DNA of 64,000 bases from an uncultured Planctomycetaceae bacterium (lineage in GTDB: Bacteria; Planctomycetota; Planctomycetia; Isosphaerales; Isosphaeraceae), in the NCBI GenBank assembly GCA_963833985.1, contig CAWIAD010000002.1:2208001-2272000 (forward strand), given 5' to 3'. The notes under the pieces are model-generated. The model ran no database searches. It was not told the DNA's origin and was given only the letters and a program-made list of their open reading frames with translations. The number at the start of each line of letters is the position of its first letter. The stretch's first letter is position 1. The position numbers and the translations under genes are program-made. Of this stretch, positions 36,672 through 46,575 are shown one piece after another.

Positions 36672-38031
36672 TCAGCGCAGAGGTTGCGTACCGGCACGCT
36701 CGGGAAACGGCTCGGCCTCATCTCGATCGGGCGTGTCTCCGGGCATGGGAAGATAGTGCCGCAGGGCCTCGGCGGACGAGGCGGGCGGGCGGCCTTGCTG
36801 TCGTGTGAAAAGCGGCACGGCGACCGCCTCCGCGAGCCGGCCCAGGGACCAGCGGTCGATCCGCTCCCCGTTTTCCAGTTCGCCCATGCGCCAGGGCATT
36901 CCGGGGTTGATCAGGCTCGAGTCGACCCACCGGGCCAGCCCGTCGGCCGGGAGGGCCTGCGCGGCCGGCGGCGTGGACGGGTCGGCCTGGTAGATCCGCA
37001 GCCGCGGTTCCGCGAAACGCGGCCGCTCCGAGGCCGGTCGGTCGCACCAGGCCAGGTCATTCGCGGCCAGCAGGCGGAGCACCCGGCGGGACCGCTCCGG
37101 CTCACCTCGGAGGAACGCGTCCAGCTCCGGAGCGATGAGCGAGAGCTCACTTCCCGCGACATCGGTGCGATGCCGCGCCCGCTCGGCAATCAGCGGTTGC
37201 AGGTTCTTCGAGCGACTCTTCCAACACCTGGTATTCTCCCCTGTAGAACTGCGACAGGGGTGGCGTGAGGGCCCTGGCGACTGCCAGGTCGTCGAGGGCC
37301 TGGCGCAGCAGCGCGACGCTGACCGAGGGATCCTGCGCCCAATCGGAGACGGGTTCGCGCGCGTACTGGACCAGGATGAGGGCCGTGGTCCGGCACCAGG
37401 CTGTCGGCACGGCACGCTCCATGTCCCGGCTGGCGCGGACGACAGCCCTCAGCAAGGCCCAGGCACCGGCGGGATCACCCTCGGTGCGCAGCCGCCCGGC
37501 CTCGAAAAGCGCGGCGTCGCCGATCCACGACAGTTGCCGTATGACCTCCTGCCTTGCTGTGAGGGCCAATGCGCCCGTGGGACGATGCGGAAGCTCGATA
37601 TACGCATCGGGACGTTCCGATCCAGCACGCAGGAGAGAGATCGCCTCTCGGTGCTCGCCAACCCAGCCGCGGAGCACGGCGTCAGCCCCGGACCAGTGGA
37701 GGTTGGCCCTGGAAAAGGACGTCTGCTCGGCGTTGCTCAGGTCGCGGGACCGCTCGACGGCCTGGCGATAGAGCACGAAGGCGTTGCGGTCATCGGCAGC
37801 TCCGGCGGTGGATCCGGAAGCGGTCACTGCGAACGTGTCCCCCACATCCGGAAGTCCGGCAAGCTGCGATCGACGCCAGAGCAGCGCCAGGATCGGCAAT
37901 GCGATCAACGCGTACAGGAGTAGAAGCCCGAGCCGCCGTCGGCCTCGTGTCCGCTCGATGGCCCGCAGCGGAAACAGCAAGGCCGCGGTGATGGACCACT
38001 CTTTGCGCGAGGGGACCGGCTCCGTGCTCAT
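36672..38031 (-). CDS. Hypothetical protein with N-terminal TM helix (frameshift ~37210)
   Basis: GGAGGA RBS; two ORFs join at LEESL/KNLQPLIAE; no recognisable domain. Confidence 0.55.
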
Positions 38032-38242
38032 CGCGAGACGTCCTCCCAGGCGGTTCACCGGTCGGAAGCGTTGTTTGCTCGCCGACGCGCATTGTCTGGG
38101 AATGATCCGGGACGATCAAGCTCGCCGATCGTTGCTGTCGAACAGGGGCCTTGCCCAGACGTGGACCCGGCAACGGCCGTCTGAAACGGCTGGCAGGCTG
38201 TGCCGCAGCAGTCATCTGGCCAGCCTCTTGTTGCAAGGAGAG

Positions 38243-38614
38243 TCACATGGTCTTGTGAAAGAGCGCGGCGATGCCGAAATACGGTACGGCGAACGGATAG
38301 GCGAGTATGCCCCCCAGGTTCAAGTGGGTGTGAGCGACGCCGTGCAAGCCTCGATTCTTTCCCATGACCTGGGTGCTGACCTGGGCCGCGGGCAGCCTCG
38401 TTCCATGACGCATCGGTGTCGCAGTCACGGCAACAACTGAGGTCACGGTCGCCTGGGCCAAAGGGAGCGAGCGTACGTGTTGCGGCGGTACATGGGCGAG
38501 ATGGGCCGCCACTCCTGCCCCCGGGTGCGTCCCGGCCGGGTAAGTGGGGGCCAGTAACGTCAGGAGACGGCGCCCTTCGAGCTGGTGGACCGACGGGCGC
38601 AGAGATCGAGCCAT
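38243..38614 (-). CDS. Small protein with planctomycete LExRxLL export-type motif
   Basis: MARSLRPSVHQLEGRRLLT; GAGGA RBS. Confidence 0.55.
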   Translation of the reverse strand: MARSLRPSVHQLEGRRLLTLLAPTYPAGTHPGAGVAAHLAHVPPQHVRSLPLAQATVTSVVAVTATPMRHGTRLPAAQVSTQVMGKNRGLHGVAHTHLNLGGILAYPFAVPYFGIAALFHKTM

Positions 38615-39460: not shown

Positions 39461-39831
39461 TGCCAGGTCTCGTGGTACCACAGAGGCAGAAAGCACCCAC
39501 AATACGCCTCTCAAACGGGCTAGGTGTCGGCGTTTTCGACCATCGAGGCGAGTTGATCATGCGCCTTGGTGGGCGAGCGGTCGAGATCAGAGTATGGGCG
39601 CACGCTCGGTCCGGCTGGTCCGCCCTTGTCAAGGAGTCTCACGAGTCGCCATGGGAATGAACGGACGAGTGCACAAAATTTAGAACATTCTGAAATACCT
39701 GTTGCATCGGACGAATCGCGAGGGCCAGAATGTGCGCAGCCTCTACAGACGCCTGACCCGCATGTTTGCTGGAGGTCAAAATGTGCATGCGTAACACATC
39801 GCGGCCCGAAGCCGGAATCGCGCGGCCCGCC

Positions 39832-40952
39832 ATGTCTTCACCACGGCTCCCCTCGGCTCGTTTGGCGACGACATGGGCTTGCCTCTTCATACTGTCGACA
39901 CAGAGCGGATGCGCCAAATCGGCGGTCCCCTGTCCGGGCGAATCGTTTGATGCAGGACCGGTGTTCGTGACGTCCACCAACCTGATCAGGCATCGCTTCG
40001 AGGTTACGAACACGACTGACTGTCTCGTCAGGATCCTTGGGAAGACCCAGTCGTGCTCCTACACCGCTGCAAACCTGCCCCGAGAAACCCTGAAGCCGGG
40101 TGAGTCCGCTTGGCTTGACGTTGAAGTGCGCGTGCCGGATGGGTATGCGCGACTTGCTCCGGCGATTCTTATCAATACCGATCATCCGAGCTACCCCGAA
40201 TGGCGGTATCAAATAAGGGCGGAGGTTTTCCCGACCTCGAGGATTGATCCGCCGGTCGTGGATCTCGGCGTCAGGTCCCCGGGGAGGGTGGCGCCCGAGG
40301 GCAGCGGGGGCGGCACCGAAACTCCCCAGCACGCCTGGCTTGAGTGCTTTGCCCCCGACGGGGCGTCGCCCCCGTTACCTGTGCGGATCGAGTGCCGAGG
40401 GGGGGGTTAATCCCGTCACTCGCTAGGGATCCCGTCGTCGAGGTGCTCGGCGGAGGGGTACGCAGGGCGCGTTACCGCATCACCTTCCGCCTGGAGGAAG
40501 GGGACGGCGTCGCGCGCACTCATGTGCAACCTCTTGTTGTCTTGACGAGCTTCGGCCCTCCTGCTTCCGCAAATGTCACCTGGGTCGATGGAGGACCCCT
40601 CTCGATAAACTCGAGCGCTGTCCACTTCGGAATGATCCAACCCGGCGTTCGATCAGTTCGGAGAACTCTGGTCGTGTCATCATCTGGCACGACGGAATTT
40701 CGGCTCTTGGCTGCCGATGGCGGTAAGCCTGGCGTTCGGGTTTGCCTGCCCTCTGTCGATCGCGGTGGCTCGGAGCCCGCGCTGACCCACGACCTGGAAC
40801 TGGTTCTTTCGGTTCCGGAGCTTGCCCCCAAGGGGCTTGCCGTCTCCGGAATTGCGCACTTGAGGACTGACCTGGCATCCGCCAAGGAGATTGAGATCCC
40901 CTGGTCGGCATTCTTCCGCGCCGCTCAGGCCGAACGCATTCGTGGCGAGTGA
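39832..40952 (+). CDS. DUF1573-domain lipoprotein (frame break at G8 tract 40399-40406)
   Basis: Lipobox-like STQSGC; HRFEVTNT...SCSYT...LKPGES (DUF1573 Ig-like); second half has the VHFG... repeat; start codon uncertain. Confidence 0.7.
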
Positions 40953-40989
40953 CGTTTGACGTGTCCATTTCATGGAAAGGGATTGAGTT

Positions 40990-41373
40990 ATGCGTACTTC
41001 CAAGAGTCTCTTTGTCACGCTATGTGCATTCGTTGTGTTCACCTTCGAGGGGACCATCGCCGGGTCTCAGAACAACATGGCTTGCGTGATGTTTCACACG
41101 GGGTGTCAAGGATACACCTGCTACTCGGTGGGCGACTCCACGTGCACTGACCAAAATGGCGTCCAGCACAACTGGAACCGGATGACGCAAGGTAACGGGA
41201 CTGGCTTCTTGCTGGGGACCTGCCAGCCGGGAAGTGGGAATTGCAACATGGCCACGTTTCCGTGCAACGTGCAGAAATATTGGAACACAAGGTCTAAAGA
41301 CGAGATTTGCGATCAGACAACGTTCCAGTGCACGGACGCTGGGTCGGCCGGTCCGGGATGCAAGGGGAGTTGA
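40990..41373 (+). CDS. Small secreted cysteine-rich protein (10 Cys after the signal peptide)
   Basis: AAAGGGA RBS; hydrophobic signal peptide; ~100-aa Gly/Thr/Asn/Gln-rich mature region with 10 Cys. Confidence 0.75.
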   Translation: MRTSKSLFVTLCAFVVFTFEGTIAGSQNNMACVMFHTGCQGYTCYSVGDSTCTDQNGVQHNWNRMTQGNGTGFLLGTCQPGSGNCNMATFPCNVQKYWNTRSKDEICDQTTFQCTDAGSAGPGCKGS

Positions 41374-41503
41374 TCTTGAAGGGCGCGGTTGAGAACCGTC
41401 GCCAGGAACGCTCGAAGCAGTCATGTGAGCGGCCCCTACCGCTGCTGGTCACTGAGCGGACGGCGCCGCTTGCTGAGCCTCTGAGTGGAAAGGCGCGTGA
41501 ACA

Positions 41504-42594
41504 ATGCAGATTGGAACCTTCCTCCTCGCTTGCGCGTGGGTGTCGGTTGCGAGCGCTGACGACTCGGACCTCGTTTCCGCGGTACGCACGGCCTACGCGG
41601 CGAACCGGGTCGCCATGCCTTTTGGCACCTTGAAATTCGAGTTCGCGGTAGGCTATGCGGCCGGCATCGACGCGGTGCGCAGGGGTGAGCTCTCAAAAAA
41701 GATCGCCCGCGAGGGATCATACTTCTACGACGGATCGATGCCCGGTTCGAGCTGGTTTACAGCGACGAGGAGATGGACCGGTTCAGCACGAACGTGCAGT
41801 CCCGTCGCGTTCTGACCAACGGACGCCTCACGCTCTGGGACCACATCGATCTCGACCCCCAAGAGCGGAAGCGGCGCCATTCAGCGCAGATTGACGCGGG
41901 GACACGCGTCTTCTTCCATTACGTCCTTTGCCCGCTCGACCTGGGAAATCCCCAACCCCAGGGGTATGACATGGGGTACAACTTGGACACCGCTCTGAAA
42001 CCAGGCGAGTGGAACGTTGCCGTGGCCCCGGACGCAGTCTACACCGATGGCTCTCCGACGGTTCACCTTGTGATGACCGATTCCTCTGGTTTTGCTCGGC
42101 ATTACTGGGTGGACGTCGAGCGAGGGGCCATGCCTCGGGAGGTCCGCGACGTCCCCAAGGAGGGCATGGGCATGCGCATCTGCTACGACGACCTGCACCG
42201 TGTCAACGACGTGGCCTGGCTTCCTTTCAAGATGACAATTTATGATGACGCGGGCTTTACAAAGCAACTGGTGGTTCGCGAGGCGAGTTTTAGCAAGCAC
42301 CCCGTCCGCAAAGATTTCTCTCTCGAATTCCCCGAGCCAGAGCCCATGATTAACTCGGCCGCGCTTGTTCATTACGCTCCACAGAAGGTCTGGGACCTTG
42401 AGAAGCTGCCAGCGCCCGGGTCTCGGGGGGCGCACCGGATCACTCTCGTGGAACCCTCAGTGGCTGTACCTGATGCACCCGCTGACGGCGGGGCCGGACT
42501 CGGTATGATCCTGGCCTACGCAATAACCTTAATTGCCATTATCATTGCAGCCACGGGCGTTCGAGTCTGGGGGAAGCGACGCCATGGTCCTTAG
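41504..42594 (+). CDS. Exported beta-rich protein with C-terminal membrane anchor (frameshift ~41735)
   Basis: Signal peptide ending ASA-DD; YWVDVERG and WLPFK motifs reminiscent of LolA-like folds; C-terminal MILAYAITLIAIIIAATGVRVWGKRR. Confidence 0.6.
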
Positions 42595-43633
42595 CCCACG
42601 ATGCCTGTCGTCCTCAGCCGGTGATCGGCAATCGCGCCGTGCGCTGAGTCTCATTGAGCTTCTGGCCGTCGTCGCGACCATTGGGCTCCTTTTTGGATTG
42701 CTGATCCCCGCGGTCCAACAGAGCAGGGAGGCCGCGCGGCGCTTGCAGTGCATCAACAATCTCAAGCAGATCGGACTGGCTCTCAATTCGTACGTGGCGT
42801 CGAACGGGTTTTACCCCGGGATCAACACACCATCCGGTTTGGACACTAACGGAAAGCTCTACTCAGGGCACCATTTCAGCCCGCTGGCCAGGATGTTGCC
42901 CGAGCTGGGGGACGCCCCGACATTCAACGCGACGAATTTTACCTGGCACCCGTGTGAGAAGATCGCGGTGAGCTCCAACTTCACCGTGATGTCGACGCAT
43001 GTTTCGCTATTCCTGTGCCCCTCCGACTCCACTCCTTCAGGTCCGGGCTACGGCCGGGCGAATTATCGCTTCAACGTAGGCCCGACTCCCTGGATGTCAC
43101 CGGGCCCCGAAGATCCAACCCCGTGGAGCGGTCCATTCACGTGCCATCGTTACTATCGCCCGGCCGACTTTCAAGACGGGCTCTCCCAGACCATAGGCGC
43201 GTCGGAACGCATCCGCGGCAGCGGCGCGGGAGGACGACAGGGTTACGGCTGCTACCGGCTAACCGATGCGGGGGATGACAAGCTGATGGGCGGCGCCGAT
43301 GAGGCCCTTATGATCTGTTCCACCGCTGCCGCGACGCTTCCCTTGGAGACGCGAAGTGGAGAAGCGTGGTTTCTGTCCGGATTCCACTTCACGGACTACA
43401 ACCACTGCGCTACCCCGAACTCGATGATTCCGGACTGTGGCTTCCTTCCCAGTGTAAGCACCCTTCACGAGCGCTTCCTTGAGGAAGGCTTGTTCACGGC
43501 GCGGTCCTACCATCCGGGAGGAGTCAACGCCCTGCTCATGGACGGCAGCGTTCAGCATTTCAAGAACTCCATCGAGTTAAGTGTCTGGCGCGCTCTCGCC
43601 ACTCGGTCGAATGGCGAGGTTGTCTCCTGGTGA
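42584..43633 (+). CDS. DUF1559 prepilin-type protein
   Basis: [65 protein letters not shown]. Confidence 0.93.
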   Translation: MVLSPRCLSSSAGDRQSRRALSLIELLAVVATIGLLFGLLIPAVQQSREAARRLQCINNLKQIGLALNSYVASNGFYPGINTPSGLDTNGKLYSGHHFSPLARMLPELGDAPTFNATNFTWHPCEKIAVSSNFTVMSTHVSLFLCPSDSTPSGPGYGRANYRFNVGPTPWMSPGPEDPTPWSGPFTCHRYYRPADFQDGLSQTIGASERIRGSGAGGRQGYGCYRLTDAGDDKLMGGADEALMICSTAAATLPLETRSGEAWFLSGFHFTDYNHCATPNSMIPDCGFLPSVSTLHERFLEEGLFTARSYHPGGVNALLMDGSVQHFKNSIELSVWRALATRSNGEVVSW

Positions 43634-43929: not shown

Positions 43930-45378
43930 GTGATGGGGACGGATCGACCCCGAACTCTGGGCGAATTACGGGCAAGCGGCTATCGCATGGAGTCGGTGAA
44001 GGACGAGATGAGACGCAACCTCGTCCAGAAGCTGCGCACGGGCGAATCGCTTTTCCCTGACATCCTCGGCTATGAAGAGACCGTGGTCCCGCAGATTCAG
44101 AACGCGATTCTCTCGCGGCATGACATGCTGCTGCTGGGATTGCGCGGACAGGCCAAGACGCGGATGCTCCGGCAACTGGTACATCTGCTCGACGAATTCC
44201 TGCCGGTCGTGGCCGGCTCCGAGCTGAACGACCATCCATTCCACCCGATCTCGAAGTACGCGCGCGACCTGGTGGCCAAGGAGGGGGATGCAACGCCCAT
44301 CGCCTGGATTCGCCGCGAACAGCGCTATCATGAAAAGCTGGCCACGCCCGACGTGACGATCGCCGACCTGATCGGCGAGGTGGACATGATCAAGCACGCC
44401 GAGGGCCGCTACCTTTCGAGCGAGCTGACCATGCACTTCGGGCTGATTCCGCGCACCAACCGCGGTATCTTCTGCATCAACGAACTGCCCGACCTGGCAC
44501 CCAAGATCCAGGTGGGCCTGTTCAACGTCCTCGAGGAGCGCGACATCCAGATCCGCGGCTACCCGATCCGCCTTGAACTCGATGTTTGCATGGTCTTCTC
44601 CGCCAATCCGGAAGACTACACCAACCGCGGCCGGATTGTCACGCCGCTGAAGGACCGCATCGGCTCGGTCGTCCGCACGCATTACCCGCTCACGCGCGAG
44701 ATCGGCATCGCCATCAGCGAGCAGAACGCCTGGCTCGACCGCGACACGGGCGACGGTCCGGCGCGGCCGGCGCTCGCCGTCCCGATCTACGTCAAGGAGG
44801 TGGTCGAGGAGATCTCACGGTTGGCTCGGACCTCGCCGCACGTGAACCAGCAATCGGGCGTCTCGGTGCGGATGTCGATCGCGAACCTGGAGAACGTGGT
44901 CTCGAACGCCGAGCGGCGTTCCCTGGTGCATGGCGAGAACTGGATCATCCCGCGCGTCTCCGACCTTGGCTTCACCGCATCCAGCTCACGCGGGAAGCTG
45001 GAACTGGCAATGAACGAGGAAGACGGCCACGAGGACAAGCTGATCGGCCGGATCATGGGTGAGGCGGTCAAGAACATCTTCGGTGCTCACTTCGACGTCC
45101 GCGAGTTCAAGCCCATGGTCGAATACTTCGAAGGCGGCCAGAACGTCGAGATCGGCGACATGCTACCGACGAAGGCCGTTCTGGAACGCATTGCCAAGGT
45201 CCCCGGCTTGCGCAAGCGCGCCGAGGAGATCGCCGCGAACCTGCTTCCCGACCTGAAGGATCGCGAGGCGCGCGAGGCCGCCACGGCGAGCGCAGCGGAG
45301 TTCATCCTGGAAGGCCTGCACGTGCATAACAAGCTGAACAAGGCGGCCAAGACGGGCGGATCGACCTACAGGCGATAA
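43930..45378 (+). CDS. Mg-chelatase-like AAA+ ATPase
   Basis: GLRGQAKT Walker A variant, INELPDL Walker B variant, SANPEDYTNRGRIVTPLKDR. Confidence 0.88.
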   Translation: MMGTDRPRTLGELRASGYRMESVKDEMRRNLVQKLRTGESLFPDILGYEETVVPQIQNAILSRHDMLLLGLRGQAKTRMLRQLVHLLDEFLPVVAGSELNDHPFHPISKYARDLVAKEGDATPIAWIRREQRYHEKLATPDVTIADLIGEVDMIKHAEGRYLSSELTMHFGLIPRTNRGIFCINELPDLAPKIQVGLFNVLEERDIQIRGYPIRLELDVCMVFSANPEDYTNRGRIVTPLKDRIGSVVRTHYPLTREIGIAISEQNAWLDRDTGDGPARPALAVPIYVKEVVEEISRLARTSPHVNQQSGVSVRMSIANLENVVSNAERRSLVHGENWIIPRVSDLGFTASSSRGKLELAMNEEDGHEDKLIGRIMGEAVKNIFGAHFDVREFKPMVEYFEGGQNVEIGDMLPTKAVLERIAKVPGLRKRAEEIAANLLPDLKDREAREAATASAAEFILEGLHVHNKLNKAAKTGGSTYRR

Positions 45379-45423
45379 ACAAGAATCGCGGAAATTCAAA
45401 GGTGGCTGCCGGCCACTCACCGG

Positions 45424-46575
45424 ATGGTGTTCATGTCGCTCTTCGAGTACTCGAAATGGGACGGATCGCACGAATTCCTGCCCCAGTCGGCCGACAAGCT
45501 GTTCGAACAACTTTCGGAGTACCTGCTTCAGTACGGTGAGGACGTGCTGCGCAACCTCGAGGACGTCGCTGAAGACGACCTGCCGGAAGTGATCAAGCTG
45601 ATCGAGAAAGAGGGGCTGATCGAGCGCGACGAGGAGGGCCAGTGGGTCGTCACGCCCAAGGGCATCCGCAAAATTCAGAACAAGGCCCTGGATGATCTCT
45701 TCCAGACGATGCGGCGCGACGGCCTGGGCCGGCACGACACCGAGCAGAAGGGCGAGGGGACCGTCAAGCTCGAGGATACGAGGCCCTACGTCTACGGCGA
45801 CTCCCTGGCCAACATCAACATGCACGAGACGCTCAAGAACGCCTACGTGCGGCAGGGTGGTGGGGTGCCCATCCGCTTGCAGCATGAGGATTACGTGGTG
45901 CACGAGACCGAGTACCAGTCGCGCTGCGCCACGGTGGTGCTCATCGATATGAGCGGCTCGATGGGCCGTTACGGCAAGTACACCACGACCAAGAAGGTAG
46001 CGATTGCCTTGCAGGCCATGGTCCGTGCCCAGTATCCGCAAGACGCGATCGAGATGATCGGCTTTTACACCTTCGCCAGCCCGATGACCGAGCGGCAGCT
46101 TCTGAACTCGGCACCCAAGCCGGTAAGCATGTACGACAGCCGGATCCACCTGCGGTTCGACATGGACGCCCCGCCGAAGCGGGTGCCGCAGCATTTCACC
46201 AACATCCACGCCGGGCTTCGGCTGGCCCGCAGCCGGCTCATGAGGCAGCCGGCAAACAACAAGCAGATCATCGTCATCACCGACGGCGAGCCCACGGCGC
46301 ACATCGAGGGCCGCGAGGTGGTGCTGATCTACCCTCCTGCCGAGAAGACCGCCACGCACACACTCCACGAGGTCCGACAGTGCGCCAGCGCGGGCATCCG
46401 CGTCTCCAGCTTCGCCCTCATCGAGGACTACTTCTATCTGGGCCTCGTCAACTTCGTGCAGGAGATGGCGCGTGTCTCCGGCGGCGTCGCCGCGTACTGC
46501 TCGGTGGACGACCTGGGCAAGCTCGTCTTCGAGAGCTTTGTCGGCGGCCGGCATACCAGGCGGTACAATCAATAA
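45424..46575 (+). CDS. VWA domain protein (probable partner of the AAA ATPase)
   Basis: DMSGSM MIDAS motif, FTNIHAGL, ITDGEPTA. Confidence 0.9.
   Translation: MVFMSLFEYSKWDGSHEFLPQSADKLFEQLSEYLLQYGEDVLRNLEDVAEDDLPEVIKLIEKEGLIERDEEGQWVVTPKGIRKIQNKALDDLFQTMRRDGLGRHDTEQKGEGTVKLEDTRPYVYGDSLANINMHETLKNAYVRQGGGVPIRLQHEDYVVHETEYQSRCATVVLIDMSGSMGRYGKYTTTKKVAIALQAMVRAQYPQDAIEMIGFYTFASPMTERQLLNSAPKPVSMYDSRIHLRFDMDAPPKRVPQHFTNIHAGLRLARSRLMRQPANNKQIIVITDGEPTAHIEGREVVLIYPPAEKTATHTLHEVRQCASAGIRVSSFALIEDYFYLGLVNFVQEMARVSGGVAAYCSVDDLGKLVFESFVGGRHTRRYNQ

Follow-up and report, generated by a model that had tools for sequence, protein, structure and literature searches.

Introduction

Systems that combine a double-glycine leader with a C39 peptidase are represented by the bacteriocin PCAT exporters. 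DUF1559 proteins, to our knowledge, are strongly expanded in planctomycetes and have no established function. The nearest described counterparts of the locus presented here are TcpB/TcpF of the Vibrio cholerae TCP and CofB/CofJ of ETEC CFA/III, in which, according to the relevant passage of PMC10120004, a minor pilin is required for export of a protein encoded in its operon; the N-terminal segment of TcpF is proteolysed upon secretion. The locus shares with the systems of that passage a pilin-family protein encoded beside a protein that is exported by Sec and would have to cross the outer membrane in a further step. Unlike the tcp and cof operons as presented there, it holds no major pilin, ATPase, secretin or assembly genes; its candidate cargo is a disulfide protein of ~95 aa, its pilin belongs to DUF1559, and binding between the two is putative. 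That passage has nothing equivalent to its LolA-fold and DUF1573 partners. An analogy with NVEALA of Bacteroidota was dropped, as none of the papers retrieved for it mentioned the term.

The four-gene cassette, located in a window of 64,000 nucleotides (the whole stretch of DNA analysed), is real and conserved. As its explanation we favour, tentatively and somewhat short of calling it probable, a pilin-coupled module for the maturation and export of one variable disulfide protein.

Results

Layout and composition of the cassette

All four genes lie on the + strand. Gene 1 (39781..40952) encodes a predicted DUF1573 lipoprotein, gene 2 (40990..41373) a predicted secreted, Cys-rich mini-protein of an unnamed hypervariable family, gene 3 (41504..42594) a predicted periplasmic, membrane-tethered LolA-superfamily domain, and gene 4 (42584..43633) a DUF1559/H-X9-DG prepilin-like protein. 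Gaps of 37 bp and 130 bp separate the first three genes, genes 3 and 4 overlap by 11 bp, and a non-coding gap of ~300 bp is found on either side of the cassette, in agreement with the co-oriented, closely spaced and bounded arrangement proposed in the preliminary description. The AT-richness claimed there is present but modest, with a GC content of 0.606 against 0.649 ± 0.027 (6.5th percentile of 2670 genome windows). The GC3 of 0.66-0.77, against a median of 0.82, occupies the 1st-18th percentile, and both measures are therefore lower than the genome background rather than equal to it. Scans for promoters and terminators remained at chance level, and the PADLOC models of anti-phage defence systems gave 0 matches for 6 proteins.

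Recurrence in other planctomycete loci

The four-gene combination, whose recurrence had been proposed as a check, is found widely in other planctomycete loci. Among 40 close and 40 distant loci gathered around relatives of gene 3, all four genes are present in 20/40 close loci, the pilin gene directly follows gene 3 in 34/40, and a Cys-rich ORF stands just upstream of gene 3 in 21/40, with a filter that fires ahead of only 87 of the 8102 genes in this genome. When metagenome loci are selected by the pilin, gene 3 lies just upstream in 16/18, the remaining two having no upstream DNA. Only 8 of the 82 DUF1559 loci in this genome are close to a gene-3 relative. A DUF1573 gene is absent beside gene 3 in 15/40 close loci, and gene 3 stands alone in 18/40 distant loci. 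The mini-protein gene is missing from 19/40 close loci, ten of which retain gene 3 and the pilin only and four gene 3 alone, so gene 3 and the pilin can persist without the cargo; this absence counts against the export reading. A pattern scan of the genome contigs returned one locus only, and the deep alignment is too variable for a pattern. Nothing was found in literature searches for DUF1559 together with DUF1573, for Planctomycetes with C39, double-glycine, cysteine-rich and pilin combinations, or for LolA-like with cysteine-rich and Planctomycetes, nor was a description found of either of the two cassette types distinguished below.

A hypervariable cysteine-rich mini-protein

The gene 2 product is the Cys-rich mini-protein that had been announced: 127 aa in length, it carries an N-terminal hydrophobic stretch and 10 Cys in the last 98 residues, all of them within the predicted mature part, and has no propeptide. 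Its family is mostly ten-cysteine, the cysteines being kept while the spacers vary, and identity reaches 46% to one copy (L049) and 17-30% to 17 others. A single-sequence search returns only the protein itself; a profile search with the family finds 6 proteins. The family has no convincing match in Pfam (32 members tested) and no match to a toxin family, and the mini-protein has no match among PDB sequences and no usable one in the Atlas. Its model (pLDDT 60) matches no fold, which is not evidence for a new one. The net charge of the mature mini-protein is zero or below in 27/32 and reaches +3 in none, on which ground a reading as a cationic antimicrobial peptide is rejected.

A sister type with a C39 protease

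The cassette pilins form two sister branches, a protease-free one, to which the window cassette belongs, and one accompanied by a C39 protease. The sister-type C39 domain (PF03412) is a stand-alone protein, none of the sister cassettes examined showed an ABC transporter, and C39 occurs in 0/40 close protease-free cassettes. A double-glycine-type propeptide is carried by 33/39 mini-proteins with C39 and 0/45 without, by a pattern composed after the sequences were seen; an earlier automatic rule, which misplaced several first cysteines, gave 24/43 against 1/41. The sister type thus resembles double-glycine/C39 systems in its C39 domain and matching propeptide, whereas the window cassette has neither. 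The N-terminal proteolysis of TcpF, as treated in the passage cited above, loosely resembles this propeptide.

In the sister type, the divergence of the mini-protein tracks that of gene 3 and not that of DUF1573, the pilin or C39 (partial r 0.35 on ranks, 0/500 permutations), in partial Mantel tests that overstate for related sequences. In the protease-free type, the association of mini-protein and gene 3 is weak (r 0.26 raw, 0.12 on ranks, p ~0.1) and is gone when restricted to close loci; on ranks, co-divergence is not upheld for this type, which counts against the export reading.

The hypervariability of the mini-protein, together with a bacteriocin-like pairing of propeptide and C39, would also suit polymorphic antagonism, in which the mini-protein would be a toxin directed at other bacteria and the anchored LolA-fold protein a periplasmic immunity factor, orphaned after toxin loss. 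Tandem duplication of mini-protein and gene 3 pairs (L097, L127), the occurrence of gene 3 singly or as tandem arrays where the mini-protein is absent (L081, L124, L126), and the low GC and variable chromosomal slot point the same way. The mature mini-proteins are, however, acidic or neutral, unlike cationic membrane-lytic peptides, they lack a toxin family match, and this reading leaves unexplained why gene 3 is linked to the pilin and fused with it. We consider such antagonism unlikely.

The DUF1573 lipoprotein

Gene 1 probably starts at 39781, downstream of a GGAGG site, rather than at the alternative start 39832. Its assignment to DUF1573 is borne out by PF07610 (31.6 bits, cut-off 26.1), the N-terminal Ig-like DUF1573 domain being followed by more beta-rich repeats and the N-terminus carrying a lipobox-type G↓C; a lipobox-type G/A-C column is present in most DUF1573 homologues. 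The part of PMC9312934 that covers DUF1573 counts it among the selenoprotein families, with the motif UGC. The gene 1 fragments match 23 homologues in order, all 23 of which contain a CxC motif; the window copy reads C-x-Y, with neither an intact CxC nor UGC. The NF041425 (seleno)protein model scores below its cut-off (23 against 100 bits).

A membrane-tethered protein with a predicted LolA fold

The earlier label of LolA-like for gene 3 is sustained by the predicted structure of an intact relative, but Pfam returns no LolA match for the window protein. Intact homologues comprise 363-380 aa, with a predicted N-terminal signal peptide and a C-terminal membrane helix followed by a basic tail; by hydropathy, the C-terminal helix is present in 125/127 family members and an N-terminal hydrophobic stretch in 116/127. 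The fold assignment is made on the AF2 model of the relative P0002 (pLDDT 94), which matches DUF1329 (4z48, Z 14.9), LolA3 (9tp6, 14.8) and 3bk5 (14.7), and LolA-like structures in Foldseek (E 1e-10); the gene 3 profile also reaches 9tp6 (E 0.004). Gene 3 is predicted to adopt a LolA-superfamily fold, an open beta-sheet clamp with covering helices. The predicted open sheet is shared with LolA, LolB, LolA3, DUF1329, 3bk5 and RseB/MucB over ~205 residues at an rmsd of ~4 Å, from which gene 3 differs in being only 9-14% identical, C-terminally anchored, hypervariable, multi-copy and pilin-fused. LolA proper, unlike this anchored family, is a soluble, unanchored Lol shuttle whose binding partners are lipoprotein acyl chains and LolC/LolB. 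The LolA folds known so far have lipids or lipoproteins as ligands, and the cargo here would be a disulfide protein, an observation that also counts against the export reading. The family comprises 554 clusters at 50% identity, and an Atlas search returned planctomycete clusters without names, recognition being below threshold. LolA3 pairs poorly with LolB, and the passage of PMC13103446 concerned suggests a separate function for it.

The predicted fold and the lipobox-type column would also be consistent with gene 3 acting as a private Lol-type carrier for DUF1573, the lipoprotein, pilin and mini-protein then forming an interchangeable surface tip. As described in the relevant part of PMC12075869, the Kil/Tad pilus of Myxococcus carries Tip complexes of minor pilins that are interchangeable and have variable domains, resembling the cassettes in that several pilin-linked modules occur per genome; those Tips contain several minor pilins, whereas only one of the four cassette products is a pilin. 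Because gene 3 is membrane-tethered, no shuttling would occur unless it is cut. It is, moreover, frequently found without DUF1573, whose divergence the mini-protein of the sister type does not follow, tracking that of gene 3 instead. Such a delivery role seems quite improbable to us.

A dedicated clade of DUF1559 pilins

Gene 4 matches DUF1559 (PF07596, 126.8 against 23.3 bits, E 2e-36), as proposed, and TIGR04294 H-X9-DG above its cut-off (32.7 against 19 bits). The type IV prepilin motif attributed to it is recovered in part: E5 and the hydrophobic helix are present, but the site A↓L is non-canonical, G↓F being found in 27/37 relatives, and N_methyl (PF07963) falls below its cut-off (13.8 against 21.2). 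The family profile matches solved pilins across residues 1-60 (best E 2e-9). In a tree of 161 pilin sequences, one cassette clade (support 0.96) unites 48 protease-free, 37 C39-type and 3 other members, gene 4 being placed in the cassette-specific, protease-free branch. The two subclades reach purities of 45/46 and 37/38, and the labels change 8 times on the tree, compared with 61 times or more in 200 shuffles; the choice of loci by their resemblance to cassette genes favours such purity. Where gene 3 is fused in frame to the pilin, six distinct junctions are seen, in the order of membrane helix, basic linker and G↓F-T-x-I-E.

Planctomycete genes combining N_methyl with SBP_bac_10 (DUF1559), the same domain pair as in the cassette pilins, are often flanked by genes for type I/II signal-peptide proteins (PMC8567305); the cassette clade differs in having fixed partners, the partner families being unnamed in the passage concerned. 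PMC2754498, where it touches on DUF1559, handles the family as solute-binding. The pilin and gene 3 might accordingly capture an incoming ligand, a kin-specific mini-protein or a nutrient, with no export involved, and their persistence without the mini-protein would then resemble a receptor in a non-producer. Few cytoplasmic residues follow the gene 3 membrane helix, however, leaving no evident output, and no recurring regulator or transporter appears among the neighbour families screened. Uptake or sensing is given little credence here.

State of the window copy

A single-base frameshift interrupts each of genes 1 and 3, in gene 1 at an eight-G run (40399-40406) and in gene 3 near 41732-41736; in both cases the fragments line up one after the other along intact homologues. 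As 13/59 ordinary genes in the assembly are also split (blastp on six-frame ORFs), the frameshifts are probably assembly errors. The sequencing runs listed for the genome comprised one soil DNA run (0.05 share) and no RNA run, and contigs of the former covered neither site. Decay of the window copy into a pseudogene cassette is a doubtful alternative, compatible with the two frameshifts, the lost CxC cysteine and the non-canonical pilin site, and with events elsewhere: DUF1573 genes are truncated and abut gene 3 in L066, L072 and L073, and L086 is interrupted by an IS-like ORF. Against this, the rate of splitting predicts 0.71 breaks across four genes (P(2 or more) = 0.16), the eight-G run holds one of the two, and there are no in-frame stops apart from the frameshifts. 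Given the frameshifts, C-x-Y and A↓L, the copy present here may nevertheless have lost its function.

Discussion

Comparative sequence evidence supports a functional link among the genes: their order is conserved, a pilin clade is dedicated to them, gene 3 fuses to the pilin, and protease and propeptide co-occur in the sister type. The roles once assigned to the products, namely cargo, chaperone, carrier or immunity factor, and coupling to T2SS/T4P, are best regarded as putative. In the export reading that we favour, the cassette would be a mobile-looking envelope module, likely maturing, exporting or displaying a variable disulfide mini-protein through a general T2SS or type IV pilus. All four products would enter the periplasm, where the DUF1573 lipoprotein may form or shuffle disulfides through CxC or serve as an Ig-fold chaperone, and the LolA-fold protein, tethered to the inner membrane, would bind its cognate mini-protein. 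The DUF1559 protein, cut by prepilin peptidase, would become a minor pilin and pass the cargo on to a filament whose genes lie outside the cassette, the same cut parting gene 3 from the pilin in fused forms. Genome-wide, 2 prepilin-peptidase, 3 secretin and 14 T2SSF domain matches lie outside the cassette; that the cassette itself contains no major pilin, ATPase or secretin counts against this reading. Once outside the cell, the mini-protein would be a candidate for recognition, adhesion or antagonism.

A bolder and rather less likely extension is that Planctomycetia possess an undescribed, diversified repertoire of disulfide mini-proteins, with at least 10 cassettes in some genomes, in each of which a private redox lipoprotein would mature the mini-protein, a cognate LolA-fold clamp in the inner membrane would hold it and a DUF1559 minor pilin reserved for it would be loaded with it. 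If true, type IV filament machines would have a new route of cargo recognition, serving kin recognition or antagonism, and the LolA fold would here bind proteins in place of lipids. The analysis reveals a large unnamed LolA-fold family and a disulfide mini-protein family barely found by sequence searches, and the sister types with and without protease and propeptide provide a natural control. With fixed partners and a candidate cargo now attached to one DUF1559 clade, knockouts and pull-downs can be designed as specific experiments, and a testable function is proposed for part of the large DUF1559 family.

Organisation of the cassette in the window

The cassette comprises four coding regions running from 39781 or 39832 to 43633, all co-oriented, as the preliminary description stated. 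Gene 1 (39781/39832-40952, two candidate starts) and gene 4 (42584-43633) are matched by Pfam to DUF1573 and DUF1559, the families originally assigned to them, while gene 2 (40990-41373) and gene 3 (41504-42594) have no Pfam match. In the CxC motif of gene 1, Tyr replaces the second Cys, with CxC kept in 23/23 homologues, and the pilin site of gene 4 is A|L. The source genome, from which the window spans C2:2208001-2272000, comprises 10.2 Mb in two contigs at 65% GC. A close homologue of gene 3 carries the source label Isosphaeraceae, which would place the genome in or near that planctomycete group. The cassette was also described as looking AT-rich, which holds to a modest degree: its GC of 0.606 lies at the 6.5th percentile of the genome, where the values for nine cassettes span 0.60-0.63.

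One frame change interrupts gene 1 and another gene 3. The halves of gene 3 align consecutively with intact homologues of 363-380 aa, and those of gene 1 with 23 other homologues. As a control for the break rate, 201 flanking ORFs of other genomes were compared with this assembly; 13/59 conserved ordinary genes, those matching at at least 55% identity, are split by frameshift. The expected number of breaks over the four cassette genes is 0.71, with P = 0.16 for two or more, so both breaks are likely assembly errors; the same rate calls for caution with apparent pseudogenes of this genome. At 36672-38058 (-), a pair of ORFs without Pfam match overlap in different frames and are probably one more frameshifted gene.

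Recurrence across the family and class

Relatives of gene 3 occur in 37/120 other genomes of the family and in 96/301 sampled from the class; a separate count gives 554 clusters at 50% identity. Three sets of 40 loci were picked for a strong match and flanking DNA: a close set (40/64 family-level gene-3 matches), a distant set (40/164 class-level matches) and a C39 set (40/136 C39 peptidase matches). The close set contains DUF1573 at 25 loci, the pilin at 35, C39 at 0 and a Cys-rich ORF at 21, the Cys filter firing before 87/8102 genes of the source genome. All four genes, whose combination had been proposed as one system, occur together at 20/40 close and 16/40 distant loci, with gene 3 alone at 18 distant loci. 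The exact gene order of the window is found in 18 close-set loci by an automatic rule, and by eye in 18 loci from 16 genomes. Conversely, in 18 metagenome loci retrieved with the pilin alignment, gene 3 lies immediately upstream in 16, and the remaining two have no upstream DNA.

Several loci depart from this layout. Gene-3 relatives stand in tandem in L124, L126 (three copies) and L081 (two copies), where the mini-protein gene was not detected. In L066, L072 and L073, from three genomes, a shortened DUF1573 gene adjoins gene 3, with loss of the mini-protein gene, which looks like a repeated internal deletion.

Features of the mini-protein and the tethered protein

Eight cysteines are invariant across 19 aligned gene-2 copies (17-46% identity to the window copy), and six are kept across 32 copies class-wide. 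Mature parts are acidic or neutral, and family and fold searches gave no assignment. Averaged over alignment columns, identity is 25-26% in gene 2, gene 3 and DUF1573, against 56% in the pilin.

Gene 3 was modelled on the intact relative P0002, using 127 sequences (pLDDT 94). The model matches the LolA superfamily with Z 14.9 (4z48), 14.8 (9tp6) and 14.7 (3bk5), at an rmsd of ~4 Å over 202-207 residues, and in Foldseek at E 1e-10; the LolA-like label is thereby supported through the predicted fold of this relative. By hydropathy, a C-terminal membrane helix is present in 125/127 family members and an N-terminal hydrophobic stretch in 116/127, from which a domain in the periplasm, anchored in the inner membrane, is predicted. 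Nearly invariant residues are mainly G, P, W, F and L, plus one Asn and one Asp, with no catalytic set evident among them.

In-frame fusions of gene 3 to the pilin occur in five long representatives and three loci, with six distinct junctions. At every junction, the membrane helix is followed by a short basic linker and G|F-T-x-I-E. Given this topology, prepilin peptidase could split the two proteins; a fusion between genes that overlap might also be just tolerated.

Comparison with C39-type cassettes

In the sister cassettes, the order DUF1573-pilin-Cys-gene 3-C39 is found at 25 of the 40 C39-set loci, and the Cys gene lies immediately 5' of gene 3 at 30. When 161 DUF1559 proteins, limited to lengths of 270-420 aa and to those whose site is recognisable, are arranged in a tree, 48 protease-free, 37 C39-type and 3 other sequences fall in one clade of support 0.96. 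Its two branches are pure at 45/46 and 37/38, a purity favoured by picking loci by similarity; a 14-member group outside consists mostly of protease-free pilins.

Mini-proteins adjoining C39 mostly carry eight cysteines. A double-glycine-type propeptide, by a pattern tuned on the same data, is present in 33/39 mini-proteins with C39 versus 0/45 without. This confinement links the mini-protein with the protease and shows that the window's type does without the protease/propeptide step. With the other genes allowed for, mini-protein similarity tracks gene 3 across 21 cassettes of the C39 type (raw r 0.56, rank r 0.35; 0/500 permutations), and only weakly across 22 protease-free ones (raw r 0.26, rank r 0.12; p ~0.1). 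C39 and DUF1573 matches inside one ORF (L122:5535-6992, L056:4819-5742) may represent another kind of fusion in the cassette family.

Chromosomal site and further loci

The neighbouring AAA ATPase gene (43987-46575, +) is present in 13/13 genus relatives (L189-L201), followed in the window by a presumably vWA-like gene. In the fetched DNA of these relatives, DUF1559 lies upstream of it in 0/13, one locus having no upstream DNA, which points to a variable slot as the cassette's chromosomal site. Five relatives share one gene there, which we take to be a candidate ribose-phosphate pyrophosphokinase; the others hold unrelated ORFs. On the other side of the cassette, a small ORF at 38243-38614 (-), without Pfam match, starts in a way that resembles the planctomycete cell-surface signal consensus given in PMC8567305.

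Ten more loci of this genome carry two to five cassette gene types in varied order. A C39 peptidase gene is present in 4/10, and in 3/10 the anchored protein is alike in architecture only, unmatched by gene-3 models. Only 8/82 DUF1559 loci have a gene-3 relative nearby, and three solitary DUF1573 genes (C1:931143, C1:1795893, C2:2620232) have no pilin or gene-3 neighbours. The gene at C1:2792951-2795104 (-), tail to tail with a cassette in L013, encodes a repetitive protein of 717 aa that contains 63 cysteines.

Proposed role

The mini-protein gene is often lost and gene 3 occurs in tandem arrays, both of which would suit a toxin/immunity system or a receptor, and the cassette may be either. 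The simplest reading using all four parts is that the products would mature and hold the mini-protein, which the pilin would couple to export or display; each physical step we infer. The genome encodes prepilin peptidase, secretin and T2SSF genes. The Vibrio cholerae minor pilin TcpB and the operon-linked exported protein TcpF, as presented in PMC10120004, would be the analogy for such pilin-coupled export. A literature search that covered only a minority of subscription papers found no description of such a cassette, which is apparently undescribed so far; all parts except the mini-protein have known folds or families. In conclusion, the cassette, whose function we infer, is a real and widespread module.
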